Positions 5,336 through 49,223 are shown, counted from the stretch's first letter. The stretch is DNA of 64,000 bases from Candidatus Poriferisocius sp. (GCF_965204015.1 NZ_OZ241965.1:2423991-2487990); one strand, 5' to 3'. The notes: a model not told the origin generated them from the sequence alone. Program-made: numbers and translations.

Positions 5336-5345
5336 CGCGGGCCTC

Positions 5346-5750
5346 CTACCAGACCACGCAGACGACTTCGCCGCCGATGCGGCGGCGGCGAGCCTCGCGG
5401 TCGCTCATCAATCCCTTGCTGGTGGACACGATGGCCACCCCCAGCCCGCCGAGCACCCGGGGGATGCCGTCCGACTTGGAGTAGACCCGCAGGCCGGGCT
5501 TGGACACCCGGGTGATCCCGGAGATGACCCGCTCCCGCTGGTCGGAGTACTTCATGTCGATGGTGAGGGTCTGCCCGGGGCCGCGCTCGGCCTCGGCCAC
5601 CTCGAAGTTGTCGATGTAGCCCTCTTTCTTCAGGACGCCGGCCAGCGCCACCTTCATCTTGGAGGACGGCATCTTCACCTCGTCGCGCATGGCGGTGTTG
5701 GCGTTGCGGATGCGAGTCAACATGTCGGCGATGGGGTCGGTCATAGTCAC
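5346..5750 (-). CDS. rpsH: 30S ribosomal protein S8
   Basis: 134 aa, [20 protein letters not shown]...GGEVVCVVW. Confidence 0.96.
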
Positions 5751-11002: not shown

Positions 11003-11293
11003 CTAGAGGTCGAACAACTCGATTTGGTCGCCTTCAGCGAGGGTGACCAATGCCCGCTTGGTGTCGGGCTTGCGGCCGAAGGTGGGACTGCGCCGATTGC
11101 GGCGGCGCTTACCCTTGCGATTCATGGTGTTGACCTTGACGACGGTGACATCGAACAAGTTCTCAATGGCGTCTTTGATCTCAGGCTTGGAGGAGTCGGG
11201 GTGAACCCGGAAGGTGTAGACGTTGGACTCCAGCAGCTCGTAAGACTTCTCGGAGACCACCGGGGCCAACACGACGTCGCGGGGATCCTTCAT
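11003..11293 (-). CDS. rplW: 50S ribosomal protein L23
   Basis: 96 aa, [58 protein letters not shown]. Confidence 0.95.
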
Positions 11294-11955
11294 GATTCAT
11301 CCCCCTCGTCGGCGACGGGTTCGCCAGCCTCGACCTCGGCTGGCGCAGTGGAGGGCAGGGTGTCGAGGGTGAACACGACCACATCGGACACCAACACGTC
11401 GTAGGCGTTCAGCTCTTCGGGGCTGATGAGGTGGACTTGGGGCAGATTGGCGAAGCTCTTCCACACTTCCCGCTCATCGCGTTGGGCCACCAAAAGAACC
11501 CGTCCTTCGGCCTTCAACGCCGCGAGCGCAGCGACTGCGTCCTTGGTGCGTGGGGATTCGAACCGCCAGCGGTCCACCACCACCACCTTCTCGTCGCGGG
11601 CCCGATCAGACAGTGCCGATCGAAGAGCTAGGCGGACCATCTTCTTAGGCGTGCGCTGGCGGTAGCTCCGCGGCTTGGGTCCGAGGGCAACGCCCCCTCC
11701 CCGCCATTGGGGATTGCGAGTCGAGCCGTGACGGGCCCGGCCAGTGCCCTTTTGACGCCACGGCTTGCTGCCACCGCCCCTGACCTCAGATCTGGTCTTG
11801 GTGCTCTGGGTGCCCCGGCGCCGGGCCGCCAACTGGGCGGTGACCACCTGGTGCATCACGTATACGTTGGGCTCGATCCCAAATACCTCGGGGTCCAAGT
11901 CCACCGACCCGGTTTTCCGCCCAGAAGAGGGGTTGCGAACGGTGACGGTGGTCAT
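11290..11955 (-). CDS. rplD: 50S ribosomal protein L4
   Basis: [26 protein letters not shown]...[32 protein letters not shown] 11955 overlaps the rplC stop (ATGA). The track ORF start at 12147 is a shadow extension. Confidence 0.93.
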
Positions 11956-12596
11956 TTCGCTCCGTTCTTGATTGCGCTGCGGATCAACACGGTGGATCCT
12001 CTTCGCCCCGGAACCGACCCCTTCACCAGGATCAAATCGTTCTCGCTGTCTACCCTCACCACCTGGAGGTTGAGCGTGGTGACCTTCTCGGCGCCCGCCC
12101 GCCCGGGCATCTTCTTGCCTCGGAAAATCCTGGACGGCGTGGCGCACTGGCCCACGGCGCCGGGCTTGCGGTGAACTTTGTGGGCACCGTGGCTAGCCTT
12201 TTGACCGCTGAAGTTGTGCCGCTTCATCACGCCGGAGAAGCCCTTGCCCTTGCTGACGCCGGTGACATCCACCAGCTCGCCCCCGTCGAACACGTCGACC
12301 CCGATCTCCTGGCCGGCTTCGTAGGTGCCCACGTCGTCGAGTCGCAGCTCAACAAGCGTGCGGCCCGGGGCAACCCCGGCCTTGGCCAAGTGGCCTCGCT
12401 CCGGTTGGGTCAGCCGATCGGGACTCTGGGTTCCAAAGGTCACCTGAAGGGCGGAGTAGCCATCGGTCTCCGGCCGTTTGACCTGCACGATGCGGCAGGG
12501 CTCCACCCGCAGCACGGTGACGGGAACGACGCGGTCGTCCTCGTCCCATACCTGGGTCATTCCTAGTTTTTCGCCGACAATCGCCTTGGCAACCAT
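11952..12596 (-). CDS. rplC: 50S ribosomal protein L3
   Basis: 214 aa, MVAKAIVGEKLGMTQVWDEDDRVVPVTVL...FKGRGFSGVMKRHNFSG. Confidence 0.96.
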   Translation of the reverse strand: MVAKAIVGEKLGMTQVWDEDDRVVPVTVLRVEPCRIVQVKRPETDGYSALQVTFGTQSPDRLTQPERGHLAKAGVAPGRTLVELRLDDVGTYEAGQEIGVDVFDGGELVDVTGVSKGKGFSGVMKRHNFSGQKASHGAHKVHRKPGAVGQCATPSRIFRGKKMPGRAGAEKVTTLNLQVVRVDSENDLILVKGSVPGRRGSTVLIRSAIKNGAK

Positions 12597-34601: not shown

Positions 34602-35846
34602 TCAGGCGGCGGTCAGCTGTTCAACGGGCGGCGGGTGGGTTGTGGGGCGGGGCAGGCTGGGGCGGGGCGGGGGTTGGAGGCGGTATCGGCTGGCTTCGGT
34701 GTCGTGTTCGATGGTGTGGCCGTGTTTGTGGACTTTCTTGTGGCAGCGGGGGCACAGAAGCACCAGGTTGGTGATGTCGGTGGGCCCGTTTTGGTCCCAT
34801 GGGATTATGTGGTGGGCGTCGCACACCTGAGGTCTGAGGCCGCAGCCCACGCAGCGGCGGTCTCTTTTGTACAGGGCCAGCTTTTGGGCCTTGGTGACCG
34901 CCCTTTGGGCTCTGCCCACGTAGAGGGGCTGCCCTTCGGCGCCGAAGATCATCGGCACGATGTCGGCGTCGCAGGCTAGGCGGCGGAGCTCGTCTAGCTC
35001 GATAGGAGTGCCGTCGATGAGCCCAGCGTTCTTCAGCCGGCCCTCGATGGCGTCGTAGTCGGCGGAGATCACCAGCACAGTCTTCTGCGGGCGGGTCCCG
35101 CCGCCCGGCGCAACCACTGCGGGGTTGGCGTTGTCGGCGGGTTGTTGGGTGATGAGCGCTACCAGTGCGTCGGCGTTGCGCTGCTCGAAGGTGCGGATGG
35201 GGTCGTAGGCGATGTCGTCGACGAGCATTTTGTCGCTCATCGCGCCAAGAGCAATCTTGACCCGATCGCCGGATACTTGGTCGATCTCGGCGTGCAACAC
35301 GACCATGCCGTCGGTGCCGTCGAATACCTTGAAGGATCGGCGGGCCCGCTGGCGTTCGATTCGACCCATGCCGTCGTCGGCGCGGCGCTGGTCCTCGCGG
35401 ACGGCGACGGTCTTCTTGAACTCGTCGTGGTCCTGCAATCCGCCCAAGTCCAAGAGCTCTTGCTGGTCTTGTTCGCTCATCGGCGCCCGCTTGTGCGACT
35501 CGGCCACCATCCCACCCTGATCGGCGGAGATGCGCCCGTCGCGCACCGCGCCCAAAACCTCGGGCATGGCCGCGACGCCCTGGGCCGTCCTGGCCAACTG
35601 GCGGGCCCGATACGCGCTTATGCCGAACTGATGGCACACCGTCGCAGCCGCGCCCGGCCCCTCCAGCTCGCCATAGCGGGCGACCAGCCCGACCAGATAG
35701 CCCTCGGCCCGACGGCGCAACAGATCGGCCTGCCCCATCAAACCCAACAACTCCGAAGTGCCCGCCTCAGAGAAATCCGGGAACCCGAAGCCCGCACCGA
35801 CACCAGCGCCAGAGCCGTTTGTGCTGGGTTTCAACGTAAATTCCAT
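34602..35846 (-). CDS. DUF222/HNH endonuclease (REP13E12-type)
   Basis: The C-terminus has an HNH zinc motif, RRCVGCGLRPQVCDAHHIIPWDQNGPTDITNLVLLCPRCHKKVH. The N-terminal helical region resembles actinobacterial 13E12-repeat proteins. ATG at 35846 (MEFTLKPS...). Confidence 0.8.
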   Translation of the reverse strand: MEFTLKPSTNGSGAGVGAGFGFPDFSEAGTSELLGLMGQADLLRRRAEGYLVGLVARYGELEGPGAAATVCHQFGISAYRARQLARTAQGVAAMPEVLGAVRDGRISADQGGMVAESHKRAPMSEQDQQELLDLGGLQDHDEFKKTVAVREDQRRADDGMGRIERQRARRSFKVFDGTDGMVVLHAEIDQVSGDRVKIALGAMSDKMLVDDIAYDPIRTFEQRNADALVALITQQPADNANPAVVAPGGGTRPQKTVLVISADYDAIEGRLKNAGLIDGTPIELDELRRLACDADIVPMIFGAEGQPLYVGRAQRAVTKAQKLALYKRDRRCVGCGLRPQVCDAHHIIPWDQNGPTDITNLVLLCPRCHKKVHKHGHTIEHDTEASRYRLQPPPRPSLPRPTTHPPPVEQLTAA

Positions 35847-35989
35847 AAATGAGATTATACCAACCCCAGTGACACAATCCGCCTTGAAAATGATCAGAAA
35901 ATCCGAAAAGTAGGCACGCGCAGCCAATGGGGGTTGGCGGTGTCTCGTTGATGTCCGGGCGTTCTCGCGCTACCCTTCAGCCATCATTC

Positions 35990-36157: not shown

Positions 36158-39100
36158 TTACTGGGCAGTGACTGTTTCGTAGATGCCTCTGGCTAATCCG
36201 GCGAACACTATTTCTCGGAAGTCGGGGTCATTGAGGCAGCGTTTGACGATTTCGTCGTTGTCGGCCATGCGCTCGATCATCAGTTTCGGCAGTTCTTGGC
36301 GCATGGCGAGTTCGAACTTCTCGAAGGGGTTGGCTTCGGCAGTCTGGCTGATGTTCTCGTTGTTGACCCCGTCTTCTTGTATCTGCTCGAAGAACAGCCG
36401 GTCTGAATCGTCAAAAGCCGTGCCGAATCGGTCGTTGAGGTTGGCGATGATCTCTGAAAGCGGGGCCTCGTCTTCCTCGGTGCGGCCGGTGCCCACCTCG
36501 ATAGGGCTCCTGACCGTTGTTCCCTCGTCGTCGAGGTCGATCGCCCCAGTGGAGACATGCTGTAGGCGGTAGTACTCCAACTCAACCTCGTCTTCAAGGC
36601 GCAGCTGCTCCATCATGTCGTCGCGGAGGCTGGGCAGCAGCCTTTTGGCGAATGCTGCGAGCTGTTCGAGGTCGCTGTCGGCATACGGGATGATCTGGCT
36701 GATGAAGGCGTAGAGCCGGACGAACGCTCCGAGCCGGTCGCGGAACCTAGCTTGCTCGTCCTCTTCGAGGTGCCTGAACCTGCCGACAGCGGGCTGAAGT
36801 TCCAATACCAACCGCGCGTGGTCGCCGTCTTGGCGTTTGTCGAAAGGCTGAAAGTACACCTGGGCGAACCGCTCCACTTCGTCGTGGTGGTACACCTGCA
36901 TCTCATCGAGTTCGTACTTGAGGCCGTCGAGCAGAATCGGGTCTGATTGGGTTTCTAGCTGGGTCTGGTCGTAGTAGGGGGCGAAAGCCGCGCCAATGTC
37001 TTCGGGATCGTTGACAAAATCCAACACGAACGGGTCGCTCTTGCCGGGAGCGACCCGGTTGAGACGCGACAAGGTTTGCACGGCCTGAACTCCATCGAGG
37101 CGCTTGTCGACGTACATCGCCTGCAACAACGGCTGGTCGAAGCCTGTTTGGTACTTCTCGGCCACGAGGAGAATCTGGTAGTCGGGCGAGTCGAAGCGGG
37201 CCGGCAGCGCTGACTCGCTGATCGGCTTGCCGCTCACGACGTCGGTGTTCATGCCAGACTCGGTGAAGTCCTCACCGGTGTCGGGATCGGTGACGGTGCC
37301 GCTGAACGCGACCAGCGGGCGAATGTCGGTGTATCCCTTCTGACCGATGCACTCCTCGAAAGCCCGCATGTAGCGCACGGCGTGGAGCCGCGACGACGTA
37401 ACCACCATCGCCTTGGCCTTGCCGTTCATGCGGTGCCTGACGTTGGCGCGGAAGTGCTCGATAATGACCTCGGTCTTCTGGGCAAGAGTTTCGGGGTGGG
37501 TTAGCGCATACCTATTGAGGATCCTGGCCGCGCGGCGCACCGGATATTCGGGATCATCGGGGGCACTACTAACGATCCTGTAGTAAGTGTCGTAGTCGGT
37601 GTAGTTCCGCAGCACGTCGAGGATGAAACCCTCCTCGATGGCCTGACGCATGCTGTAAACGTGGAACGCCTCGGGATTGCCGCTGGCTCCGTGCCGTCCA
37701 AAAAGCTCAATGGTCTTGCCCTTGGGGGTGGCGGTGAACGCGAAGAAGGACAAATTCGGCTGCGGGCCGCGGGACTCCACCACAGCATTTAGTCCATCCT
37801 CCCAGTCCTCAACGCTTTCCAAAGCTGCTCGTGAGCGCTTGCCCAGGACCGCCTTCATGTTGCGGGCACTCTCCCCGGTCTGACTGGAATGCGCCTCATC
37901 GACGATCACCGCATAACGCCGCCCTGCGATGTTTTGTCTCCACTCTTCTGCTTGGAACTGCTCATCTCGATTGAGTTCTTCGGGAGACCCAGCGCCGGCG
38001 ATGGACAGCAGGCCCTGCATGACGAACGGGAACTTCTGCAAGGTTGTAATCACGATCTTCGTCCCGTCCACAAGAGCCTGGGCCAGTTGCTTTGAGTCCT
38101 CGTCGATGGCCTGTACGACACCCTGGGCGTGCTCGATCTGGTAGATGGCGTCTTGAAGCTGCCGGTCGAGGATCCGCCGATCCGTGATGACCAAGACGCA
38201 GTCGAACACCTTGTCGTCGGTGTCGGTGTGCAGGCTCGCTAGCCGGTGCGACAGCCACGAGATGCTGTTTGTCTTTCCGCTACCCGCCGAATGTTGGATC
38301 AGGTAGTTGTTCCCAGCCCCTTCTAATCGAGCCGTCTCCACCAGACTGTCTACTGAGTCGAGTTGGTGGTAGCGGGGGAACACCAACGTCTCCCGCCTCA
38401 TGGTGCGTGCACCGCTCTCGCCGTAGATTTTCTCGTCGCGGTGCTCGATGAACACGTAGTGGCCCAAGATGTCTAGGAAACGGTTGCGTTCAAGAACCTC
38501 CTGCCAGAAGTAGCTACTGCGGTAGCCCGACGGATGCTCTGGGTTGCCTGCCCCGCACCTGATATCGCCGGGGGCGCTGCCCCGGTTGAATGGCAAGAAC
38601 CGAGTCTTGTTCTTTGCCAGCCGCGTGGCCATGTGAACTTCGTCGGTGTCGGCCGCGAAATGCACCAGGGCGCGCTTGGAGAACTTGAACACAGGAGCGT
38701 TGGGGTCGCGATCTTCCTTGTACTGACGAATGGCATTGCGCCACGTCTGACCCGTCATCGGGTTCTTCAGCTCGCAGGTCGCTACCGGCACGCCGTTGAG
38801 AGCGAACAACAAATCAATGGTGTCGCCCTTGCCGGGATGGCACCGAACCTGGCGCGTCACCGTGAGCTCGTTTAGGTCGAACTGTGCCATGGCATCAGGG
38901 TTGAGCTTGTTGGCCGGCTTGAAGAACGCCATCCGCAACGTCTTGCCCTGGAACTTGAAGCCCTGGCGCAACACCCCAAGAGTCCCCTTGATGTCAAGCT
39001 GCTTCGCCAACTGGTCCACAACCATCTCAGCCAGACTCTCACCGTGCTGCGCCGCCAACTGGCCCCACAACTCAGGCTGAGCGGCCCGCAGGAATCCGAC

Positions 39101-39226
39101 CACGCCGACAGGGAACACAGCCCGCTCCTCATCCCACTCGCCAACATCGCCCTTGTGCCAGCCACCCTTGACCAGCATCGACTCAATCGTCGATTCAAAG
39201 TCCCTCTCGTCCGTCTGGCTAGTCAC
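36158..39226 (-). CDS. hsdR: Type I restriction enzyme, R subunit
   Basis: 1022 aa. Nuclease motif DLLFALNGVPVATCELKNP, helicase motif I QHSAGSGKTNS, and DEAH box VIVDEAHSSQTG. The GTG start overlaps the hsdS stop (GTGA). Confidence 0.93.
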   Translation of the reverse strand: MTSQTDERDFESTIESMLVKGGWHKGDVGEWDEERAVFPVGVVGFLRAAQPELWGQLAAQHGESLAEMVVDQLAKQLDIKGTLGVLRQGFKFQGKTLRMAFFKPANKLNPDAMAQFDLNELTVTRQVRCHPGKGDTIDLLFALNGVPVATCELKNPMTGQTWRNAIRQYKEDRDPNAPVFKFSKRALVHFAADTDEVHMATRLAKNKTRFLPFNRGSAPGDIRCGAGNPEHPSGYRSSYFWQEVLERNRFLDILGHYVFIEHRDEKIYGESGARTMRRETLVFPRYHQLDSVDSLVETARLEGAGNNYLIQHSAGSGKTNSISWLSHRLASLHTDTDDKVFDCVLVITDRRILDRQLQDAIYQIEHAQGVVQAIDEDSKQLAQALVDGTKIVITTLQKFPFVMQGLLSIAGAGSPEELNRDEQFQAEEWRQNIAGRRYAVIVDEAHSSQTGESARNMKAVLGKRSRAALESVEDWEDGLNAVVESRGPQPNLSFFAFTATPKGKTIELFGRHGASGNPEAFHVYSMRQAIEEGFILDVLRNYTDYDTYYRIVSSAPDDPEYPVRRAARILNRYALTHPETLAQKTEVIIEHFRANVRHRMNGKAKAMVVTSSRLHAVRYMRAFEECIGQKGYTDIRPLVAFSGTVTDPDTGEDFTESGMNTDVVSGKPISESALPARFDSPDYQILLVAEKYQTGFDQPLLQAMYVDKRLDGVQAVQTLSRLNRVAPGKSDPFVLDFVNDPEDIGAAFAPYYDQTQLETQSDPILLDGLKYELDEMQVYHHDEVERFAQVYFQPFDKRQDGDHARLVLELQPAVGRFRHLEEDEQARFRDRLGAFVRLYAFISQIIPYADSDLEQLAAFAKRLLPSLRDDMMEQLRLEDEVELEYYRLQHVSTGAIDLDDEGTTVRSPIEVGTGRTEEDEAPLSEIIANLNDRFGTAFDDSDRLFFEQIQEDGVNNENISQTAEANPFEKFELAMRQELPKLMIERMADNDEIVKRCLNDPDFREIVFAGLARGIYETVTAQ

Positions 39227-40512
39227 GCTGCGCTGCCTTCTGTCTCGACTGCGGCGAAGTCTCTCACGTCGATCTTCCCAGTCACTGCAGCTGTGACGAG
39301 TGCGCTCCGATACTCCTGCAACCGCTCAATTGCTGTACAAACCATCTCGCTGAGTCGTTCAAGCCGCGCCTCAACAGCATCAACATGCGCGATGATCGCC
39401 TCCTGCTCCCGCAAGGGCGGCACCGCGGTGACGAGCGATAGAAAGTGCTGGGGATACAACCTTAGCCTCGAACTCCATATACCCCTCGATTCCGAAGTCA
39501 TCCCAAGCACATACCTAGATGATCGGTAGGCCAGGTCGACAAACCTCGGCAGCAGCCTCCGGTGGTCCGGTACGTACACATTGTATGAGGGGCTCACGAG
39601 GCCCGGTTCCTTCGCCGTGCCAGCAGCGCCCATCCACGCCCACATGGTGTTGATGACCAAGTCTCCGGCGTAGCAGCGCTTATAGTCCTCCAGGCTCTCA
39701 GCCATGAACATGCCAACATCCGGCTTCTCCGACCGTCTCGTGACACCCGTGATGTGAGAGACAGTCAAGAGTTCACCTTCTCCGTCGTCTGATCGCTCAT
39801 CGCGCTCACGGAATAAGCGGCGATTCTCGACGACATCCCAGTGCTGAGGCACGTCTCCCAACCATTCCACTCCTGAAGGTATGAGTGGCGGCGGCAGGTC
39901 GAACCCTTCCGCCTCGGCCACATCAGGCGGCAACCCCCTGGTCACCGTCCGGGTGATGAGCGCTGTCCGATACTCGGCGAGCCGCTCGATCAACTGCTGC
40001 TTCTTCGCTGCTAGAGCATCCACCTTCGCAGTCTCTTGGTCAAGATAGGCAGTTATCGCGACCTGGACATCGTTCTCAGGTATGCGGAGCGACATCTTCA
40101 ATAAATGTTCAGGTCGTATGCGCTGGTGGCTTCTCGTAGCCGATTGCACACAAGAATGGAGATGTTGTCGGACTTCCTCTGACAACAGCAAGTACACCAA
40201 GTAGTCAGCATCTACGGCGGTTGCATTCATTATGACGAACTCGCCACTCGCTATTGCAGGATAAGTCAAATGATGAGGAACTCGTAGAACACGAGCCTTA
40301 CGGGGGTTGAGCCTTGACACCATGACCTCGCCGCCTACAAGAAGTTGCTTGTTGCTCAGAATCTCATCTGGAGGAATCAGGTCTGGTCGGCCGGTTTCTT
40401 CCAGGGAGGGGATGCTGTAATGCTCGATAATGGGATGATCTAGTTCGCGTGGGTCGATAGCTTGCCGTACTGGTTGTACGACGTGCTCAACTCGGACTTC
40501 GCGCCAAGTCAT
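39223..40512 (-). CDS. hsdS: Type I restriction-modification specificity subunit (two TRDs)
   Basis: ATG 40512 overlaps the hsdM stop (ATGA). Two TRD-like halves are separated by coiled-coil conserved regions (...AKKQQLIERLAEYRTALITRTVTRG... and ...IERLQEYRSALVTAAVTGKIDV). Confidence 0.85.
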   Translation of the reverse strand: MTWREVRVEHVVQPVRQAIDPRELDHPIIEHYSIPSLEETGRPDLIPPDEILSNKQLLVGGEVMVSRLNPRKARVLRVPHHLTYPAIASGEFVIMNATAVDADYLVYLLLSEEVRQHLHSCVQSATRSHQRIRPEHLLKMSLRIPENDVQVAITAYLDQETAKVDALAAKKQQLIERLAEYRTALITRTVTRGLPPDVAEAEGFDLPPPLIPSGVEWLGDVPQHWDVVENRRLFRERDERSDDGEGELLTVSHITGVTRRSEKPDVGMFMAESLEDYKRCYAGDLVINTMWAWMGAAGTAKEPGLVSPSYNVYVPDHRRLLPRFVDLAYRSSRYVLGMTSESRGIWSSRLRLYPQHFLSLVTAVPPLREQEAIIAHVDAVEARLERLSEMVCTAIERLQEYRSALVTAAVTGKIDVRDFAAVETEGSAA

Positions 40513-42617
40513 GCGGTGACCTCTGCGAGCATTCCGACGATTTCGTGTTCGAGTGCTTGCAGGTCGGCTTCGATATCGTCGAGCGGGCGGGGTGGTTCGT
40601 AGACGTAGAAGTGCCTGTTGAGGGGGATTTCGTACCCGAACTTGGTTTTGGAGTGGTCCACCCATGCATCGGGAACGTGGGGCATCACTTCTCGGGCCAT
40701 GTAGTCGTCTACTTCCACTCCTAGCGGCACGGTCTCCGTGTCTCGCAGCTCGGTGTCCGGTTCGGGATTGCCCTTGCTGTCATTGCAGATCGCTGCGCCA
40801 GGGTCTCGTCTTCCGAGTGCTGATATGACGGCCTTGCGCTCCGGCGCTGACAGTCGGATACCGGCAGCGCTCGCTTCGTTTTGGAGGACTTCGAGGAACT
40901 CGTCTCGGTCGTCGATGACCTCGCCGTCCGTCTCCTCTGCGATTGCATCCAGCAACGCTCGGATCGACTCTTGGCGGCGTTTGCCTGCCTCTACTTCGTC
41001 GTCATGCTGCTGGCCTGGACGCTTCTTGCTAGTGGCCAGATTGGCGAACGCTTTTTCGTCTTCTAGTTGGGCAATGCGCTCCGGGGTGGCGGCGAAGTTC
41101 AGTCGCAGTGGCCGCTCTACAGTGATTTTCTGATAGCCGAAGTCGCTGTTGTCGAAAACCTTGCTCACGGCGAGAGAGCGGGTGCGCGGTTGATGCGTAA
41201 CGGGGTCTTCGTCGGTGAATTCGCGGGTCTCGCCATGGGTGAAGTTGCCGTGGATTCGGGTCAGGTCGTCAACCTGATATGGGGAGAGCTCTTTGCGCTT
41301 TTCGCCAAGGTTTCTACGCATCTTCACGAAGAACTGGCGACCGTCGATGAGTTGCACCCTGCCCTTGCGGTGCTGTTCCTTGCGGTTAGTCAGAATCCAG
41401 ATGTAGGTGGAGATGCCGGTGTTGTAGAACATCTGGTCGGGCAGGGCCAGGATCGCTTCCAGCCAGTCGTTCTCGATGATCCAGCGTCGGATATCGCTCT
41501 CTCCGCTTCCAGCGTCTCCAGTGAACAGCGGCGACCCGTTGAACACGATGGCGATGCGGCTGCCGCCCGCACCGTCCTCGTCGACAGGCTGCATCTTGGA
41601 CAACATGTGCTGAAGGAACAGCAGCGACCCGTCGTTGATCCTCGGCGTGCCAGCGCCGAAGCGCCCGTCGTATCCGAGTGTGTCGTGCTCACGTTCGATG
41701 ACTTGGCGCTGCGGTTTCCACTCCACTCCAAAGGGCGGGTTGGCGAGCATGTAGTCGAATTTCCAGGGCTTCCCGTCGGGATGCCGCTGGAAACCGTCGC
41801 TGGTGAACGTGTTCCCACGAATGATGTTGTCCGCGTCCTGCCCTTTGAGCAGCATGTCGGACTTGCACACGGCCCAGGCTTCGTCGTTGTGGTCCTGTCC
41901 GTACAGGATCGGGCGCGACTCCCGGTTGTGCTCCAGCAGATACTCCTCGGCTACCGACAGCATCCCGCCGGTGCCGCAGGCGGGGTCGTAGATCGTCTTG
42001 ACGACATGGCTCTTACCCAGGTCGCGCTCGGGCGACAGCAAAAGGCTGACCATCAGCCGGATGACCTCTCGTGGTGTGAAGTGCTCCCCGGCCTCCTCGT
42101 TGGACTGCTCAGCCCCGATCCGAATGAGTTCCTCGAACACGTAGCCCATCTGCATGTTGTCGACGCGCTCTACCGACAGGTCCACCCCGGCAAATGCCTT
42201 GACCACTTCGTACAGCAGGTTCTTCTCGTCCATGCGGGCGATGTGGTCGACGAACCCGAATCGTTCGATTACCTCCCGAACGTTCTCCGAGAAGCCGCCA
42301 ATGTAGGCGTTGAGGTTCTGAGCCAGCAGATTCGGGTCGTCCAGCAGCCGGTCAAAATCGAGTTTGGACGTGTTATAGAACGGAAGCCCCGAGGCCGCCT
42401 CCAAGAGCTGCTCGCGGACAGTATCCGGCTGGCCGGCGTGCTGCTGGTGGGCGGCGAGCACAGCCTGCTTGGTGTCCGCGAGAACGCAGTCAAACCGCCG
42501 CAGCACTGTCAACGGCAAGATCACCTTCCGATACTCGTTGCGCTTGTAGGGCCCTCGTAGCAAGTTGCATATCTTCCAAATGAAGTTCGCTAGCTGCTGG
42601 TGCGTACTGGCATTCAC
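40509..42617 (-). CDS. hsdM: Type I restriction-modification N6-adenine DNA methyltransferase subunit (long form)
   Basis: 702 aa. HsdM N-domain (QQLANFIWKICNLLRGPYK), FTPREVIRLMV, motif I DPACGTGGML, motif IV LANPPFGVEW. GTG start at 42617 preceded by GGGAGG. Confidence 0.93.
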   Translation of the reverse strand: MNASTHQQLANFIWKICNLLRGPYKRNEYRKVILPLTVLRRFDCVLADTKQAVLAAHQQHAGQPDTVREQLLEAASGLPFYNTSKLDFDRLLDDPNLLAQNLNAYIGGFSENVREVIERFGFVDHIARMDEKNLLYEVVKAFAGVDLSVERVDNMQMGYVFEELIRIGAEQSNEEAGEHFTPREVIRLMVSLLLSPERDLGKSHVVKTIYDPACGTGGMLSVAEEYLLEHNRESRPILYGQDHNDEAWAVCKSDMLLKGQDADNIIRGNTFTSDGFQRHPDGKPWKFDYMLANPPFGVEWKPQRQVIEREHDTLGYDGRFGAGTPRINDGSLLFLQHMLSKMQPVDEDGAGGSRIAIVFNGSPLFTGDAGSGESDIRRWIIENDWLEAILALPDQMFYNTGISTYIWILTNRKEQHRKGRVQLIDGRQFFVKMRRNLGEKRKELSPYQVDDLTRIHGNFTHGETREFTDEDPVTHQPRTRSLAVSKVFDNSDFGYQKITVERPLRLNFAATPERIAQLEDEKAFANLATSKKRPGQQHDDEVEAGKRRQESIRALLDAIAEETDGEVIDDRDEFLEVLQNEASAAGIRLSAPERKAVISALGRRDPGAAICNDSKGNPEPDTELRDTETVPLGVEVDDYMAREVMPHVPDAWVDHSKTKFGYEIPLNRHFYVYEPPRPLDDIEADLQALEHEIVGMLAEVTA

Positions 42618-42678
42618 AGGGTTCTACCTCCCAACCCAAGGGGGGATGCTATGGCCAAGGACAACGCTGCACACCTCG

Positions 42679-44838
42679 TCATTCAGTGCCACTTTCTTGA
42701 GGGATCAGAAGGTCGACCTCAAGTCTCCGAAGTGCCGTCAGGTCCGACTGCAACTCGCCAACCCATTTCAGAGCCTCGTCGAACCGGCCCAACAGCTGTT
42801 CAGCCTCGTCTAGCTGTTCAGCCGAGGGAATAGGAATTGCGAGGTCGGCCAACGCTCTAGAACTGAGAAATGGCGTAGTCGCGCCGGTTGAAGCTCGGGA
42901 AACTCGATCTCTGAACTGCTGGGACTGTGTCCAGAGATAGACCCACGGAGCAGTGACCTCCTCGTGATTCGGGCGTATCAGTGCACACCCTTGGTCGAGG
43001 ACCGCTCCCTGGTGATGCCTAGTGGCCAGGATCGAACCTCCGACATCGCCCCTGAGGGCTACGACTACGTCACCCTCTCGAATTTCTACAGGCGGCCTAG
43101 TCGAGCTCTCCTTGTCGACATACCTGGCCGTGCCTGTGCCGCCAGAAGAAACTTCTCGGAGGCCGATCAATAGGGTTCCGTGTTCTGGGTCTTCCAACTC
43201 AGGTGCGTTTGTTCCCATGTATATGTCCGCAACCTCCTCCAGAGCACGGGTAATCGCCGAATCCCTGCTTCCTGACTTTTCGTTCGAGAATGGGAGTCGC
43301 TCAATTGCTGACGTTGCGATTTCGGTGGTTTCCGGCAGCTTCTCTCTCAACTCCCTGGATCGACGCTGGGCATCCTCGGTGTCGAACTCGGGAATGGGCC
43401 GGTACTGCTTTGGTTCGAGGATCGCATCGTTATTGATTATTTCGGCGATGCTCACTACTTGAGCAATCTCGTCGTTTTCAGTTGTGCCTGCTTCAAGTGC
43501 TTGAAGTGTTCGTGCGATTCGATGAATGTCTTCCGAGTCGAAGTTGTGCCGGGAACGACTGGCTGTGCCAAGAGTCGAGGCGTCAACGAGCAGCACGCTG
43601 TCAGCACCGGGTCGCGGGGGTTGGAGAACCCATAGGAATATGGGGACTGATGTCTCAGAGCGCATTCGACTTGGTAGTTGGATGACAGCCTTGATGGCTC
43701 CCTCTTCAAGCATCGCCTTGCGAATTCCTGCCTCAGGTCCGCTGCGATGGCTTGCTGTTCCAGTAGAGGTGCCCACTACCGCGACTCCACTCTCTGAAAG
43801 ACATTGAATGGCAAGCTGCAGCCAGGCAAGGTCTGCGTTGGATCTCGGGGGGGCTCCGAACCTCCACCGCTTGTCCATGTAGATGTCCGCATCTCCCCAG
43901 CTGGAGAGGCCAAGGGGTGGATCGAGGAGAACGATGTCGGCTAGGGGTAGCTCCTCTTGGGGTACCCGGAAACTGTCGCTCAAGCGAAGGTCGGCGGTTA
44001 CGCCTTGAATGAGGAAGCGAGACTTAGCGACCCTTAGAGCACCTTCATCGACATCGAAGCCAACCAGATTGATTGGCTTCGAGTTTCTTGGCTGAAGGCT
44101 GAGCGCCGCAGAAGAGAGCAGACCGCCTTCCCCACAGGCCAGATCGCACACCGTATTGGCATTCTGGCCAGCCAACTGAATCATGAGCATTGCAATGTCG
44201 GCTGGGGTTGAGTGCTCACCCCGAAAGCGGTCACGCTTACCAATTCGGCTGACGACATCATCAAATTGGGAAAACCTGGGAGTGCCTTCCCTGTTTGTTG
44301 CGTCAAAATTCTCGATCAGCGACACCAGGAGTGTGCCAGGTAATTTTGGAGCTGCAGAGAGGCCGTCTGCGAGCAGCCCCTTGAGCGCTCGGTTCTCCTC
44401 CTCGATACTCCTCGCGGCTTCGCACAACTTCTCACCGACTTCATCTGCTGGAAACTGACGCAATCGCGTCCAGCGGTCGTTCTCGCTGACGGTCACCTCA
44501 ACAGAGGATTGATGGCTCGAGCGATACGATGTATCGCTTGCTTCCAGGTAGACAAGCACTGACACAAGGAGCTCGGTTATCTCGTCTGTGTGCAGGCCGG
44601 ACATTTGCAAGCTGTCGATTAACGACCGCCGAGCGAATGTGGCAGGCACACGAGAATCGATCTTCCCGTTCTCAATCAGCCATCGCTCGACCTCGCTGAG
44701 GTCAAATCTGCCGCTGGAGTCTGCGACTGGAAAATCCGAGTGTCTCTTGCGCCAGTTGCCCACGGCAGAAGGCCTAAAACCAGTGATTTCTGCAATGTCC
44801 CTGATGTTGACGGTGGTGCGTGAAGGGAGGTCACTCAT
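42679..44838 (-). CDS. HTH - N6-adenine DNA methyltransferase - single-TRD fusion protein (M-S fusion)
   Basis: 719 aa. N-terminal HTH-like segment TVNIRDIAEITGFRPSAVGNWRKRHSDFP. HSTPADIAMLM, motif I DLACGEGGLL, motif IV LLDPPLGLSSW. C-terminal HsdS-like TRD (...IREGDVVVALRGDVGGSILAT...GCALIRPN...) plus a helical spacer. Confidence 0.85.
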   Translation of the reverse strand: MSDLPSRTTVNIRDIAEITGFRPSAVGNWRKRHSDFPVADSSGRFDLSEVERWLIENGKIDSRVPATFARRSLIDSLQMSGLHTDEITELLVSVLVYLEASDTSYRSSHQSSVEVTVSENDRWTRLRQFPADEVGEKLCEAARSIEEENRALKGLLADGLSAAPKLPGTLLVSLIENFDATNREGTPRFSQFDDVVSRIGKRDRFRGEHSTPADIAMLMIQLAGQNANTVCDLACGEGGLLSSAALSLQPRNSKPINLVGFDVDEGALRVAKSRFLIQGVTADLRLSDSFRVPQEELPLADIVLLDPPLGLSSWGDADIYMDKRWRFGAPPRSNADLAWLQLAIQCLSESGVAVVGTSTGTASHRSGPEAGIRKAMLEEGAIKAVIQLPSRMRSETSVPIFLWVLQPPRPGADSVLLVDASTLGTASRSRHNFDSEDIHRIARTLQALEAGTTENDEIAQVVSIAEIINNDAILEPKQYRPIPEFDTEDAQRRSRELREKLPETTEIATSAIERLPFSNEKSGSRDSAITRALEEVADIYMGTNAPELEDPEHGTLLIGLREVSSGGTGTARYVDKESSTRPPVEIREGDVVVALRGDVGGSILATRHHQGAVLDQGCALIRPNHEEVTAPWVYLWTQSQQFRDRVSRASTGATTPFLSSRALADLAIPIPSAEQLDEAEQLLGRFDEALKWVGELQSDLTALRRLEVDLLIPQESGTE

Positions 44839-45305
44839 GCGGGGGTCCCGAGCATGTCAAGTTCGATTGGGGGATATGGGAAAAGTATGTGGTGACTGGC
44901 AGCCATGCGCAGAGATCTGGACAGGCTCTCGGGTCGCGACACCACGGTGACGTCCACTTCTTGTTCTCCAAGCCTTGCTATCGCGTCGGCGAAGATTCCA
45001 TCTCCTGATGCAAGAATCACCGAATTGAAGCATTCGGCCACTCGTTCCTTTTCGATGACTGCAAGGAGAGCGAGGTCTGCGCCGTTCTTTCCTGAACGCC
45101 ACAAATGGCGCCCTCCCTGCCACCCAAACCGAACGTTGGGTGCTGCTCTGTGGCTGCAAGCTACGACGACTTGGTCAACAGGACCAATATGTAACGCTTC
45201 GTATGCAAGCTGGTACCACCGGACACCTTCACGGGAAGGGCTCGGTGAGCCAGTCAGGTTTTCTATGTCTATGAGATGAAGCGATCGCTCGCCTGTGCTG
45301 TTCAT
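44835..45305 (-). CDS. NYN/LabA-like (PIN-fold) nuclease-domain protein
   Basis: SLHLIDIENL..., ...GKNGADLALL..., ...VILASGDGIFADAI...EVDVTVV follow NYN motif order. The stop overlaps the MTase ATG (ATGA, 44835-44838). I chose the ATG at 45305 as the start, and the track TTG at 45341 is an alternative. Confidence 0.65.
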   Translation of the reverse strand: MNSTGERSLHLIDIENLTGSPSPSREGVRWYQLAYEALHIGPVDQVVVACSHRAAPNVRFGWQGGRHLWRSGKNGADLALLAVIEKERVAECFNSVILASGDGIFADAIARLGEQEVDVTVVSRPESLSRSLRMAASHHILFPYPPIELDMLGTPA

Positions 45306-45386
45306 GGGAGGATGTTTATCACGCGGAGTATGTGTTGTCAAGTCACAAGACTAGATAATAAAATCACACGGGGAATCTTGTTCAGT

Positions 45387-45477
45387 ATCACAGGGGGAAT
45401 TCCACCGAGAATCCGCGCGCGGAAATCTGCACCGAATCACGCGGGGGAGTTCCACCGAGAATCCGCGCGCGGAAATC
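45387..45477. repeat. Two ~41/42-bp direct repeats (49-bp period), each with palindrome TCCGCGCGCGGA, in the divergent intergenic region
   Basis: R1 is 45387-45427 and R2 is 45436-45477. The last 28 nt (TTCCACCGAGAATCCGCGCGCGGAAATC) are identical. The heads are ATCACAGGGGGA and ATCACGCGGGGGA. Shorter head-only copies start at 45363 and 45318. Confidence 0.85.
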
Positions 45478-45614: not shown

Positions 45615-47264
45615 GTGCTGGTGACCACTATCGAATCGTTGCCCTCGGACGAACTCCACCAGGAGCGAATACTGCAGGACTTTTTTGCTGACGACGAGGG
45701 TTCTTGGACCACCGTCTACCGCGGCGGTGACCTGGCCCTGTTTGCCGGATTCGCGCCACTGCCCTCCGTGCCCGATCTATTGAAGAAATGCGACTGGGAT
45801 ATCCATTTGGCGCGAGGCGGCCCGTCGCTCTGGCGGGATGCGGATGATGAGGTCTACTACGACTGCTCTTTCGGAGACCACGGCGTCAAGCCAATAGCCA
45901 TCATCCAAGACCACCTGGGAGTCCTGCCTGAAATGCTCCCTCAGCTGCTCCAAGAGTTCTGCCTGTATCACAACCTGTGGCACACCGACGGGAGGGTCTA
46001 CAAGAAGCTGCACCGTGACGGGAGCGAGGAAGTCGCATGTGAAGTGAGCGTGGATCTAGTTCGGATACGCACAAAGCTATTGAGGCAGTTTCAAGCGGCG
46101 GTCCAGCTCGTGCTCGTCAGGTACATAGATTCGACTGTTACCACTTCCCAATATTGCGATGACCCCGTGCTGGACCATGAGATCAAGGGCGAAGACCACT
46201 ATCTGCGTCTCTCTATACGCAAGAACAGACGGACTAGTGGCAAGTTCTCCTGGCTGATGGGTAAGAAGCTGATATTGCCTCCGCCGCGGTCCGAGTGTGG
46301 ACAGTGGCCGTTCGACAAGCAGGATGATGAGGATTTTCAGGAGTTCGTCATTGGCGAGACTCCAGAGGGCCATCTCATCAAGAGCACCTGCGACCCTGAT
46401 GCCCTGGACAATTACTTTGACCTCAATCCCGGTGCACCCCAATATCTGACGCCCGTGTACTTCAAGCCAGAGGTTCTTGACCGTTACTACTCCGACCCCA
46501 AGTACGAAGTGCGCGACGGCCTTCTTGCCTGCGGAGGCCTGTGGGGTGTGAGTGTGGACAACAACCATCCCGAACATGTGACGGTGTGGCTGGGCGACCT
46601 CGGGCGCGATCTGCCTGAAAAGGAACGCCACCACTGGCTCACCCACAACATCTTCGTGCCCGATGGGACCCCCAGCGAGACTGCAATCAGACGGCAACTC
46701 CTGGGGCAATGGGCCGAAGCGGACTCCCCGGCCTGGCGGCTACAGGCGGCATACACGAGATTCCGGGACGACTGGGCCATGGATTGGGGCTGGGACTTGT
46801 TCAGGGACCCAGACGACGATGACCCCCAGCTCCTCGCGTGTCTCCGTGTCCCATCCCGAGGAGGGGACACAGAATTTGGCGAACAAATCAAGGCACTTCA
46901 CCGGCTGTTGGTAGAGAGCATCAACACCCCGCAACTGAAATCGGAATTGCCGAAGGGCGAGAAGGACGAAAAATCCATTGCCCTGCTCGAACGGTGGCTC
47001 GCCCACAAGGGCCACCAGCAACTAAAGGAAGTCATCGGCTTGCTGAGAAAGATCAACGACCTCCGCAACGTCAGCGAGCACCGATCTGGGCGCAAGCGCA
47101 CACAGGTCTTTCAGAAGCACCAAATCGCCGACGACAGGCGTGAGGCGATATCCGCCCTCTTCGAAGAGGCAATCTCACTTTTGGATTCCCTCAGGGAGAC
47201 TCAGGCTAGGGCGACCACTGGCCGACAGGTCGCAGGTGCGAGTGACTATCCATTGCCTCCGTAA
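45615..47264 (+). CDS. Hypothetical 549-aa protein with C-terminal HEPN-like RNxxxH motif
   Basis: Long ORF (GTG start) with no housekeeping similarity that I recognise. The helical C-terminus ...LKEVIGLLRKINDLRNVSEHRSG... carries R484-N-x3-H489. It is the first gene of a 4-gene operon. Confidence 0.7.
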   Translation: MLVTTIESLPSDELHQERILQDFFADDEGSWTTVYRGGDLALFAGFAPLPSVPDLLKKCDWDIHLARGGPSLWRDADDEVYYDCSFGDHGVKPIAIIQDHLGVLPEMLPQLLQEFCLYHNLWHTDGRVYKKLHRDGSEEVACEVSVDLVRIRTKLLRQFQAAVQLVLVRYIDSTVTTSQYCDDPVLDHEIKGEDHYLRLSIRKNRRTSGKFSWLMGKKLILPPPRSECGQWPFDKQDDEDFQEFVIGETPEGHLIKSTCDPDALDNYFDLNPGAPQYLTPVYFKPEVLDRYYSDPKYEVRDGLLACGGLWGVSVDNNHPEHVTVWLGDLGRDLPEKERHHWLTHNIFVPDGTPSETAIRRQLLGQWAEADSPAWRLQAAYTRFRDDWAMDWGWDLFRDPDDDDPQLLACLRVPSRGGDTEFGEQIKALHRLLVESINTPQLKSELPKGEKDEKSIALLERWLAHKGHQQLKEVIGLLRKINDLRNVSEHRSGRKRTQVFQKHQIADDRREAISALFEEAISLLDSLRETQARATTGRQVAGASDYPLPP

Positions 47265-47270
47265 CGAATT

Positions 47271-47301
47271 TTGACAGAGAGTGGTAGCATTTACTAGTAA
47301 A
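47271..47301 (+). promoter_or_regulatory. Putative internal promoter with overlapping 12-bp palindrome
   Basis: TTGACA (47271-47276), an 18-nt spacer, then TAGTAA (47295-47300). The perfect palindrome TTTACTAGTAAA (47290-47301) overlaps the -10 element. It sits in the 117-bp gap before the next ORF. Confidence 0.3.
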
Positions 47302-47381
47302 TCCACCGTCCATGAATGACTCTGTGCGAGCATGTCAGCGCATGTGCGCAGTTCGTGCAGCGAAAGGACTCTGCGTTGGCG

Positions 47382-48146
47382 ATGTCTGAGTTGCCGGATT
47401 TTAAGCAACCGCCAGTCATCGAGGTAGCACTCTCAGTTCAGTTCGAAGAATCGCTGGACATCCAGACTGTCGGTGAGGACGCTCTAGCAGCAGCATGGCC
47501 CGGATACGACCTCGAAATGCGTCCAGTCCTGACGACGATGGGCCTGGAACCGGGCGCGTTCGATCGGACAGACGATGAAGCGGGCAACCTTAGGTTGTGG
47601 CTTTCCAATCCCGGCGGCAGTCGCGTGGTTCAGGTACAGCATGATCGGCTCGCGGTTCATTGGACTCAAGACGAATCGGAGGAGGCATATCCTCGGTTTG
47701 CTTCGTTGCGGGAGTTCTTCGTAGAGGCATGGCACAGACTCGACGTTGCTGTCGGCGATCAGTTGGTGCCGGACGTTTGCCAAGTTCTCTATGTGAACCA
47801 CATCGGCGCGGAGAGCGGCTGGCAAAGCGCTGAGGACACGCCCGAGATACTGGCTCCTTGGGGTGGCATCATGAGCGACGACTTTCTTCCCGAACCCGGG
47901 ATCGCTGCCACTTACCTGCACTTCCACATACCTGATCCAGGGGAGTGGCTCGACATCCAAGCAGGCCCCGTCGGAGTCAATGACGAAAGCGTCCTCGCGG
48001 TTTATCTCGCAGCTAGGGGACTTGCGTCATCACCTGATTTGGAAGGCGCTCTCGAATTCATGGACCTCGCCCATGAGTGGATCGTTCGAGGATTTGCTTC
48101 ATTCACCACACCATCAGCACACAAGACTTGGGGGCGAAGACGATGA
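47382..48146 (+). CDS. TIGR04255-like protein of unknown function
   Basis: The ATG at 47382 gives MSELPDFKQPPVIEVALSVQFEE.... From memory, this N-terminal P-P-[LIV]-x-E-[VA]...F motif and the ~255-aa length match the uncharacterised TIGR04255 family. This needs HMM confirmation. Confidence 0.65.
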   Translation: MSELPDFKQPPVIEVALSVQFEESLDIQTVGEDALAAAWPGYDLEMRPVLTTMGLEPGAFDRTDDEAGNLRLWLSNPGGSRVVQVQHDRLAVHWTQDESEEAYPRFASLREFFVEAWHRLDVAVGDQLVPDVCQVLYVNHIGAESGWQSAEDTPEILAPWGGIMSDDFLPEPGIAATYLHFHIPDPGEWLDIQAGPVGVNDESVLAVYLAARGLASSPDLEGALEFMDLAHEWIVRGFASFTTPSAHKTWGRRR

Positions 48147-48715
48147 ATAGCCAAGCAGCAGGTCTCCTAGTCGAAACGCACCCCGTTGACGACTGTGAAA
48201 GCGGGTACTTTCCGTGGGGCCTCGAGACCATTACTGACCCCTTCAGAATTGTGGTCCCTGCGGCATTCAATTTGTGGTTTCCCTTTGCCGTGCGCAGGAG
48301 AAGCCGTAGAGACGCTCTGGTGAGGATTCCGATCCTTTTGGAGCCCATCAGCACTTTGCATGAGGAAATCGAAAAGCTCAAGGAACTTGACGACGGCTGG
48401 TACGACACTGACGGCGAGGCGGGGACGGCACCGCATGAGAAAGCGATCCAAGGAGTTTGGAAGCTCGCGTCAGCTGTCCGATTCTACGGGCTGCCTCAGC
48501 CGCACGTGTTCCCGTGCGTAGATGGCGGAGTCTCTATGGAGTGGTCGCTAGGCGAGGTCGAAGCGTCCATTGAATTCGGCGACTCGTCCGAATACGCAAC
48601 ATTTGCCTCCTGGGATGCGACAACGGACGAACACCGGTATGAGGAAAACGTCCGAGTTGACAGAAAGTACATGAGGGATTGGTTGGGTGGTCTCACAGGC
48701 ACACCAGTGAAGTGA
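48143..48715 (+). CDS. Hypothetical protein (190 aa)
   Basis: The ATG overlaps the upstream stop (ATGA 48143-48146). MNSQAAGLLVETHPVDD......LDDGWYDTDGEAGTAPHEKAIQGVWKLASAV...PCVDGGVSMEWSLGEVEASIEF. I recognise no family. Confidence 0.6.
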   Translation: MNSQAAGLLVETHPVDDCESGYFPWGLETITDPFRIVVPAAFNLWFPFAVRRRSRRDALVRIPILLEPISTLHEEIEKLKELDDGWYDTDGEAGTAPHEKAIQGVWKLASAVRFYGLPQPHVFPCVDGGVSMEWSLGEVEASIEFGDSSEYATFASWDATTDEHRYEENVRVDRKYMRDWLGGLTGTPVK

Positions 48716-49110
48716 GCTGGCCCGAACTGGCGGATGGGGAAGTCCAGATCACGGATCTCGCCGAACAACTGAGGCGTCAGATAAATCCTAGATTCTTGGG
48801 CGAAGATGGGAGGACGATCACGTCCGAGGTCTTCAAGCCTCGAAGCAAGATGGTGTCCACGACTAAGGATTCCATTATTTCTAGGGAGGAGGCTCATTCC
48901 CGCTATCCGAATGAGACCGTTGGTAGCTGTTTCGTCACTGTGTCCGAAATCGAAAGTCTCGGGCTTCGCGCCATAGACGACTCTTGTGCCGATGACGTGC
49001 CGTACGGCCATGCCTATATCGACCTGCGAATCTTCGGCAGAAGTGCAATCGACAAGAAGGCCAAGCAACTCAAGAAGATTGCGATGGAAAACGGGATATG
49101 GCGTCCCTAG
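48712..49110 (+). CDS. Hypothetical protein (132 aa)
   Basis: The GTG overlaps the upstream stop (GTGA 48712-48715). ...LRRQINPRFLGEDGRTITSEVFKPRSK...VGSCFVTVSEIESLGLRAIDD...YGHAYIDL...KKAKQLKKIAMENGIW. I can name no family. The gene ends 30 bp from the tRNA-Tyr 3-prime end. Confidence 0.55.
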   Translation: MSWPELADGEVQITDLAEQLRRQINPRFLGEDGRTITSEVFKPRSKMVSTTKDSIISREEAHSRYPNETVGSCFVTVSEIESLGLRAIDDSCADDVPYGHAYIDLRIFGRSAIDKKAKQLKKIAMENGIWRP

Positions 49111-49140
49111 CGAGGCCCTCTGAATGAAGCTGTTGACTTG

Positions 49141-49223
49141 TGGGCCGGGGAGGATTTGAACCTCCGAAGGCTAATGCCGACGGGTTTACAGCCCGTTCCC
49201 TTTGGCCGCTCGGGCACCGACCC
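49141..49223 (-). tRNA. tRNA-Tyr (GTA), long variable arm
   Basis: 83 nt: GGGTCGG TG CCC GAGCGGCCAAA GGG A ACGGG CTGTAAA CCCGT CGGCATTAGCCTTC GGAGG TTCAAAT CCTCC CCGGCCC A. Confidence 0.92.

Follow-up and report, generated by a model that had tools for sequence, protein, structure and literature searches.

Two candidate defence or conflict modules at a tRNA-Tyr hotspot beside a Type I restriction-modification locus in Candidatus Poriferisocius

Organization of the locus

Positions 45615 to 49110 of a 64,000-nucleotide stretch of the Candidatus Poriferisocius sp. genome (GCF_965204015.1, NZ_OZ241965.1:2423991-2487990; the whole stretch is referred to here as the window) carry four plus-strand genes, which an earlier reading of the sequence (the original prediction) proposed to be a single, undescribed defence-type operon. 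The four open reading frames (ORFs), of 549, 254, 190 and 132 amino acids, are all present as described, and the ATGA and GTGA overlaps that were said to couple genes 2, 3 and 4 were both read in the sequence. The data presented below indicate that the region probably comprises two evolutionarily independent candidate modules of defence or conflict, gene 1 (module A) and genes 2-4 (module B), located at a tRNA-Tyr hotspot beside a Type I restriction-modification (R-M) locus. The closest relatives of the window place it among the Acidimicrobiia near Candidatus Poriferisocius, a lineage associated with sponges. The main features are as follows.

45615-47264, plus strand: gene 1 (module A), 549 amino acids, GTG start, from the ORF call
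47064-47081, plus strand: Rx4H motif RNVSEH, gene 1 codons R484-H489
47382-48146, plus strand: gene 2 (module B), 254 amino acids, TIGR04255 family
48143-48146, plus strand: ATGA overlap, gene 2 stop and gene 3 start, read in the sequence
48143-48715, plus strand: gene 3 (module B), 190 amino acids, with an 'NWDSYG-type' domain at about residues 70-175
48712-48715, plus strand: GTGA overlap, gene 3 stop and gene 4 start, read in the sequence
48712-49110, plus strand: gene 4 (module B), 132 amino acids, PDC-M32B homologue and putative effector
49140-49223, minus strand: tRNA-Tyr (ARAGORN and Rfam), the right-hand boundary of the variable hotspot

The view that the genes lie in an AT-rich island ending near tRNA-Tyr is borne out by the G+C content of the 43-49 kb interval of the window (0.55-0.58, compared with ~0.64 elsewhere) and by the position of the tRNA gene, which begins 29 bp past the gene 4 stop codon.

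Gene 1 and genes 2-4 are separate modules

Eighty gene-1 loci, with flanks of up to 10 kb, were fetched from the species-representative genome collection. Genes 2-4 were present in only one of these, that of a sibling genome (L010, the same locus as L001), so that the four-gene synteny recurs in one sibling only among these loci. The distribution at the equivalent site of related genomes, where a YajQ flank beside tRNA-Tyr is common to the siblings, displays the same pattern. L007 and L008 contain R-M genes and gene 1 only, while L006 contains genes 2-4 only, together with insertion sequence (IS) genes and an hsdR remnant. All four genes are found in L001/L010, where an ISL3 element is located between genes 3 and 4. 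As the same site in related Acidimicrobiia is occupied by gene 1 only, by genes 2-4 only or by both, the two are independent modules; they are gained and lost independently and do not constitute one evolutionary or functional unit. The variation in content between sibling genomes also upholds the assignment of the site as a hotspot of the type associated with defence genes. Elsewhere, in Mycolicibacterium wolinskyi, the gene-1 homologue is solitary and adjoins an integrase.

An integrated four-gene defence system, in which gene 1 is a HEPN effector under the control of genes 2-4, is thus very improbable. Such a system would be in keeping with the co-directional arrangement of all four genes, with their identical order in the one sibling (L001/L010), and with the gap between genes 1 and 2, which is only 51-117 bp and contains no terminator-like site; the length of the gap depends on the start of gene 2, for which an alternative ATG at 47316 would give a protein of 276 amino acids. 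Indeed, gene 1 and genes 2-4 may be co-transcribed in the window. However, genes 2-4 are missing beside gene 1 in L007, L008 and 78 further loci, and gene 1 is absent from L006 and from the 63 metagenome cassettes described below, all of which carry genes 2-4. The unit of analysis is therefore corrected from one four-gene operon to gene 1 and genes 2-4 taken separately.

In L001 the ISL3-family transposase (positions 11203-12528 of that locus) severs gene 4, of which residues 5-132 are left, from the rest of the operon.

Gene-2-like TIGR04255 genes lie in a three-gene cassette

Gene 2, which the original prediction had likened to TIGR04255, matches this NCBIfam model over positions 2-252 of 252 with a score of 47 bits against a cut-off of 30. 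In NCBIfam, TIGR04255 is a 'sporadically distributed' family to which no function is assigned. The family is represented by 2599 cluster representatives (50% identity) at E≤1e-3, and no paper naming it was found in the literature searched. Pfam and PHROGs returned nothing useful for gene 2, PDB profile searches with genes 2, 3 and 4 returned nothing, and gene-3-like and gene-4-like proteins belong to no Pfam family.

The neighbourhood of TIGR04255 genes was analysed in the 80 metagenome loci closest in sequence to gene 2 (29-54% identity). Downstream sequence was long enough for a second gene in 66 loci, and in 63 of these the next gene encodes a gene-3-type domain; in all 53 of those 63 with further room it is followed by a third co-directional, gene-4-like gene of ~115-160 codons. 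The third genes fall almost entirely into one BLAST-connected family (57/59), which is related to gene 4/PDC-M32B with an hhalign probability of 95.6% (E 1e-8), and 12 of 13 sampled second genes match PDC-M32A in PADLOC. Spacing is also conserved. In 59 of 60 cassettes the start codon of the second gene lies −12 to +15 nucleotides from the TIGR04255 stop codon, and 33 permit a 4-bp overlap. The cassette loci range in G+C content from 41 to 70%. The trio is also found on a Mycobacterium paragordonae plasmid, where it adjoins a MobF relaxase and is annotated by PGAP as a 'TIGR04255 family protein' and two hypothetical proteins. These data show that the three-gene form is the rule for the gene-2-like part of TIGR04255. 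The linkage of TIGR04255 to two downstream genes was recorded in no source searched, and the near-universal three-gene cassette appears to be new.

In L144 (4962-6387), one of the three exceptions among the 66 loci, the TIGR04255 gene precedes an unrelated gene of ~190-224 codons and no third gene is present, an arrangement that may represent a different partner set. L173 contains a 133-amino acid ORF (5001-5402) in which ~18 first gene-2-type residues (SELPDFERPPVIEVALSV) are fused to the gene-3 C-terminal domain, with no gene 4. The ORF, which lies among transposases, HipBA and AbiEii-like genes, looks like an internal-deletion remnant of the cassette.

The second and third genes are related to PDC-M32

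Genes 3 and 4 had been regarded as orphans, a view that does not stand, as both match a candidate system in PADLOC, PDC-M32. Residues 72-175 of gene 3 align with positions 258-357 of the 375-position PDC-M32A model (E 1e-14), and residues 18-128 of gene 4 with positions 5-117 of 123 in PDC-M32B (PDLC04579; E 4.7e-19). PADLOC gave no PDC-M32A match for gene 2. PDC-M32 is one of 145 'phage defence candidates' identified by guilt-by-embedding, and was recorded as a two-gene cassette (CAS_00128, FAM_01821>>FAM_00608; Payne et al. 2024 preprint). The view in the original prediction that the gene composition corresponds to no named defence system therefore holds in part. The gene 3-gene 4 core is an already catalogued candidate, while the three-gene form with TIGR04255 and the gene-1 family are undescribed in the sources searched.

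In canonical PDC-M32 loci the gene-4 homologue (L004 and L005) is preceded by one gene, encoding 402 or 393 amino acids, with a 4-bp overlap. The pairs in L004 and L005 lie among helicase/Mrr and MmeI-type genes, and further examples of the canonical pair come from a viral contig (L087) and from Rhodococcus plasmids (L169 and L170). The M32A proteins of L005 and L087 cover positions 5-350 of PDC-M32A, and the last 130 residues of the 402-amino acid M32A protein are 56% identical to gene 3 residues 56-186. The cassette in the window thus resembles PDC-M32 in that gene 4 is a full-length match to PDC-M32B, the C-terminal domain of gene 3 corresponds to that of M32A, gene order is kept, and genes 3 and 4 overlap by 4 bp on the same strand. 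It differs in that canonical M32A is a single protein of ~375-400 residues, whose N-terminal 260 residues are missing in the window, where gene 3 has its own N-terminal segment of 55-70 residues and a separate TIGR04255 gene stands in place of the M32A N-terminal domain.

One explanation for this arrangement is that genes 2 and 3 are the two halves of a split PDC-M32A. This was rejected, as five M32A proteins compared with the TIGR04255 alignment gave an hhalign probability of 0.2%, BLASTP returned nothing and no TIGR04255 (NCBIfam) match was found in M32A. As TIGR04255 and the N-terminal domain of M32A are not related, the partner position is exchangeable; judged from these comparisons, the N-terminal partner appears to have been replaced rather than to have diverged. 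The homology of the cassette to PDC-M32 with a non-homologous partner swap appears not to have been described previously.

A truncated M32A gene in L172 is a decayed copy. In L171 a minimal two-gene core, comprising the gene 3 C-terminal domain and gene 4, was considered and rejected, as the downstream 117-amino acid ORF is not gene-4-like. A phage collection contained no match to gene 2 or M32A.

Conserved residues and proposed roles of genes 2-4

The gene-3 family is characterized by the motifs L..LP.NWDSYG and, further on, P.P.VVPT..GG.Q.EWH...LEIE, and Trp86, Pro120 and Trp134 are invariant. In the gene-4 family the motifs are DDP.I....LWRRI, RpSS.AF, lSV and RDP....PAHA.V.G.K, with Arg22, Ser49 and His100 nearly invariant. 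The GTG start of gene 4 is supported by its homologues, which begin MSWP.

The AlphaFold2 model of gene 4 comprises a small α/β domain in which Arg22 is predicted to lie on the first strand, Ser49 in an S-T-T stretch on the second and His100 on a late strand. Searches with Foldseek against the PDB and BFVD found no significant match to this model, which did match an unnamed phage protein with a probability of 0.90. The best named matches, both weak and below significance, were to two folds of the ART superfamily, AvrPphF ORF2 and a viral Tpt1. The predicted fold and the placement of the Arg, Ser and His recall, to a limited degree, the ART superfamily, including Tpt1/KptA, although gene 4 lacks a catalytic Glu or Gln. 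An ART/Tpt1-like effector is, on the basis of the model, a lead rather than an assignment, and rather improbable.

In the mechanism proposed, gene 4, which is small and has three conserved polar residues, would be the effector or toxin, and gene 3 would act as an adaptor or neutraliser that binds it. Gene 2, or the N-terminal domain of M32A in the two-gene systems, would be an exchangeable sensing or regulatory partner of gene 3. These roles were assigned because the second-gene domain and the third gene form a constant pair, while the front partner is exchangeable. As PDC-M32 has this partner and the second-gene domain in a single protein, gene 3 and the occupant of the gene 2 position are likely to act together, an argument of the Rosetta-stone type.

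Gene 1 is a candidate HEPN-type protein

A word-indexed search returned 378 proteins of the gene-1 family, with 357 relatives in the genome collection. The family extends across Actinomycetota, Chloroflexota, Nitrospirota, Cyanobacteria, Proteobacteria, anammox Planctomycetota, Verrucomicrobiota and Firmicutes, and carries no annotation in the sources consulted except for one UniRef label, 'ApeA N-terminal domain-containing' (P0058). Gene 1 itself has no match in Pfam, NCBIfam or PHROGs. An alignment of 27 homologues (32-79% identity) contains 34 invariant columns, among them Arg484 and His489 (in the consensus LRSxxxAHRKGS) and positions in a highly conserved stretch, residues 279-345. The corresponding sequence in gene 1 is LRNVSEH, and the R484-x4-H489 pair is also invariant in an 18-sequence alignment of the C-terminal region. 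The AlphaFold2 model of gene 1 (predicted local distance difference test score, pLDDT, 85.5; predicted template-modelling score, pTM, 0.70) is beta-rich from about residue 30 to 325 and then predicted to be all-alpha from 355 to 541, with Arg484 at the end of the helix spanning residues 470-487. The RNxxxH motif of HEPN type reported previously for the helical C terminus was therefore recovered, with both defining residues invariant and the region helical in the model. Weak PADLOC matches to Cas13d and Csm2 (E 0.008-0.02) cover residues 453-534 and span the motif, and Foldseek gave a weak match to the AMPylated HepT toxin 8xdj (TMt 0.40, E 0.62). Collectively, this suggests that the C-terminal domain of gene 1 is of HEPN type.

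The N terminus of the homologue P0008, MTTIEP, aligns with residues 3-8 of the 549-amino acid reading of gene 1. The second GTG, at 45621, is a better fit to this homologue than the first, at 45615, and may be the start codon of gene 1.

Homologues of gene 1 are located between hsdS and hsdR in L044 (Nitrospira), L059 and L045 (a gammaproteobacterium), representing three distant lineages. These embedded genes are co-directional with the hsd genes and sometimes overlap hsdS by 4 bp, a PrrC-like arrangement of the kind on which the predictions of Payne et al. were based. Type I R-M genes lie within 10 kb in at least 10 of the 80 gene-1 loci. The 146 immediate neighbours of gene 1 in the 73 non-sibling loci include five Type I methyltransferases, four S subunits, three mad5 genes, three integrases and one Mrr.

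In L044 and L059 the embedded homologues are joined by further small embedded genes, which differ between the two loci and were found in no other fetched locus. In L044 (9860-12707) these encode a 235-amino acid protein, DUF3800-like as judged by eye only, and a 156-amino acid protein, while in L059 (9869-12256) there is a 237-amino acid protein with CxxC and SHIIPEF motifs.

PrrC and RloC are HEPN anticodon nucleases linked to Type I R-M systems. Gene 1 resembles them in its C-terminal Rx4H helical domain, in the embedding of some of its homologues in Type I R-M operons and in its location immediately beside a Type I R-M system in the window. It differs, however, in its beta-rich N terminus, with no ABC-ATPase-type domain and no ATPase match in Pfam among the 27 family members; in addition, only about one in eight gene-1 loci is R-M-linked, and in the window gene 1 lies outside the R-M gene set and is transcribed divergently from it. 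ApeA and DARNA (PD-T7-3), like gene 1, are encoded by a single gene specifying ~450-600 amino acids that contains an Rx4H motif, which in ApeA is also near the C terminus. ApeA is predominantly alpha-helical and consists of N-terminal, middle and split-HEPN domains, and the HEPN domain of DARNA is N-terminal, whereas gene 1 is beta-rich over its first 325 residues. The models for ApeA and PD-T7-3 had no match either in PADLOC, for gene 1 of the window, or in Pfam, for the 27 members including P0058. Membership of ApeA, hinted at by the UniRef name, was thus rejected in view of the lack of a match to ApeA_NTD1, HEPN_Apea or the PADLOC ApeA model and of the differing architecture, and DARNA was rejected as the domain order is reversed. 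By analogy, gene 1 is a stand-alone, mobile candidate for a single-protein, HEPN-type abortive-infection RNase with a beta-rich sensor, outside the PrrC, ApeA and DARNA families. In such an enzyme the beta-rich N-terminal region would act as sensor or regulator, holding the HEPN-type RNase inactive until infection, whereupon RNA, most likely tRNA, would be cleaved, leading to abortive infection as in PrrC, ApeA and DARNA. The gene-1 family appears to be new as an R-M-embedded candidate of HEPN type.

Alternative interpretations and significance

Several observations weigh against the interpretation of gene 1 and genes 2-4 as modules of defence or conflict with the activities proposed above. 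Pfam found nothing in the 27 gene-1 family members, PDB profile searches with gene 1 and with its C-terminal domain were likewise empty, and Foldseek returned no significant match for gene 1 in the PDB (best E 0.15), all of which bear on the HEPN identity. Most of the other immediate neighbours of gene-1 homologues are housekeeping genes. The same is true of the cassettes, in which a few neighbours are SNF2/DrmD/ZorD-like, Hma or PLD-helicase proteins and two are integrases. Defence-gene enrichment around gene-1 homologues and cassettes is thus modest, as measured by raw neighbour counts with no background control. Predicted structures cover genes 1 and 4 only, and in the case of gene 4 a pLDDT of 87.8 was reached in one of five runs only; the fold matches of this model, to AvrPphF ORF2 and baculovirus Tpt1 RNA 2'-phosphotransferase (TMq 0.41), are insignificant (E 1.6 and 2.1). 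The effector, adaptor and sensor roles are drawn from size, conservation and analogy. Finally, PDC systems are predictions from embedding, and only HEC systems were tested (Payne et al. 2024 preprint).

With respect to gene 1, the empty HEPN model and structure searches, the location of the strongest conservation in the N-terminal block rather than around the motif, and the mostly housekeeping neighbours are what would be expected if the protein were not a nuclease but had a regulatory or housekeeping function in which the Arg and His played a ligand-binding or structural part. This is considered unlikely. The Rx4H pair is invariant and lies in a helical domain, the gene is patchy across phyla and variable at the hotspot, and homologues are found inside Type I R-M operons in three lineages. 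For genes 2-4, we infer that a conflict system, serving either phage defence or addiction of the toxin-antitoxin (TA) type, is on balance the more plausible function. That the cassette is mainly a TA-type addiction module stabilising plasmids, prophages or islands is a rather less probable account. It would explain the small, tightly coupled and sporadic genes, the occurrence of the cassette or its two-gene relatives on plasmids, in one case beside a relaxase, and in a viral contig, the many housekeeping neighbours, which are typical of TA loci, the severing of gene 4 by an IS in one sibling and the existence of decayed remnants. The cassettes, however, contain no counterpart of the short DNA-binding antitoxin that is typical of type II TA systems, and no recurrent helix-turn-helix family is present among gene-3-like proteins; moreover, the defence and TA readings overlap, as many TA modules do both. 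A cellular function unrelated to conflict, such as small-molecule or nucleic-acid modification, with the placement of the TIGR04255 cassette being incidental, is improbable. The mostly metabolic or housekeeping neighbours are consistent with such a function, and the Arg/Ser/His set does suggest an enzyme. Against this, presence and absence of the cassette differ among siblings at one hotspot, plasmids and prophage-like contigs harbour the cassette or relatives of it, and the cassette is kin to a cassette embedded in defence systems with an exchangeable partner domain.

If the roles proposed here for the two modules were correct, the TIGR04255 trio could represent a widespread three-component immune or toxin system with a new minimal effector, possibly ART/Tpt1-like and acting on RNA or NAD, and a modular sensor, and gene 1 a new family of R-M-embedded HEPN-type nucleases with a beta-rich sensor; this wider proposal is speculative, and we regard it as possible rather than likely. 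TIGR04255 nevertheless gains a concrete context, consisting of a candidate effector with three conserved residues, a candidate adaptor and an exchangeable partner domain. The set of single-protein HEPN-type systems gains a candidate in the gene-1 family, some members of which, from several phyla, are embedded in Type I R-M operons.

Surroundings of the modules in the window

The Type I R-M system and the extra methyltransferase that were described as divergent from the operon were confirmed on the minus strand. The genes and the repeats located upstream of gene 1 are listed below.

36158-39226, minus strand: hsdR (Type I R-M)
39223-40665, minus strand: hsdS (Type I R-M)
40509-42617, minus strand: hsdM (Type I R-M)
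42679-44838, minus strand: extra HsdM-like methyltransferase with one S-type target-recognition domain, 719 amino acids
45393-45427 and 45443-45477, upstream of gene 1: two 35-nucleotide direct repeats, possible operator

The R-M context genes (36158-44838) are 81-93% identical to Pfam-labelled genes in L001 and L007. PDB sequence matches place an HsdM-like adenine methyltransferase core at about residues 130-510 of the 719-amino acid protein and a single S-subunit-type domain at about 535-710. The protein, which adjoins a complete hsdMSR set, may act as a solitary or accessory methyltransferase that recognizes a target sequence of its own. The protein encoded at 44835-45341 on the minus strand had no PDB sequence match, and its earlier label of 'NYN' is unconfirmed.

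The two repeats, which lie between a minus-strand gene of 168 codons and gene 1, are 97% identical and 50 nucleotides apart, and each has the perfect palindrome TCCGCGCGCGGA within it. Neither the rest of the window nor any of the 170 fetched loci contains a further copy. From their sequence, the repeats may form a putative operator or regulator-binding site. Promoter-like and terminator-like sites were not above chance, and an Rfam scan of the window identified four tRNAs and nothing else.

At the left edge of the island a minus-strand ORF of 441 amino acids (34602-35927) shares 77-84% identity with genes of L006 and L007. Its counterpart in L006 carries precomputed DUF222 and HNH labels, and the ORF may be a further mobile or defence-associated element of the hotspot.

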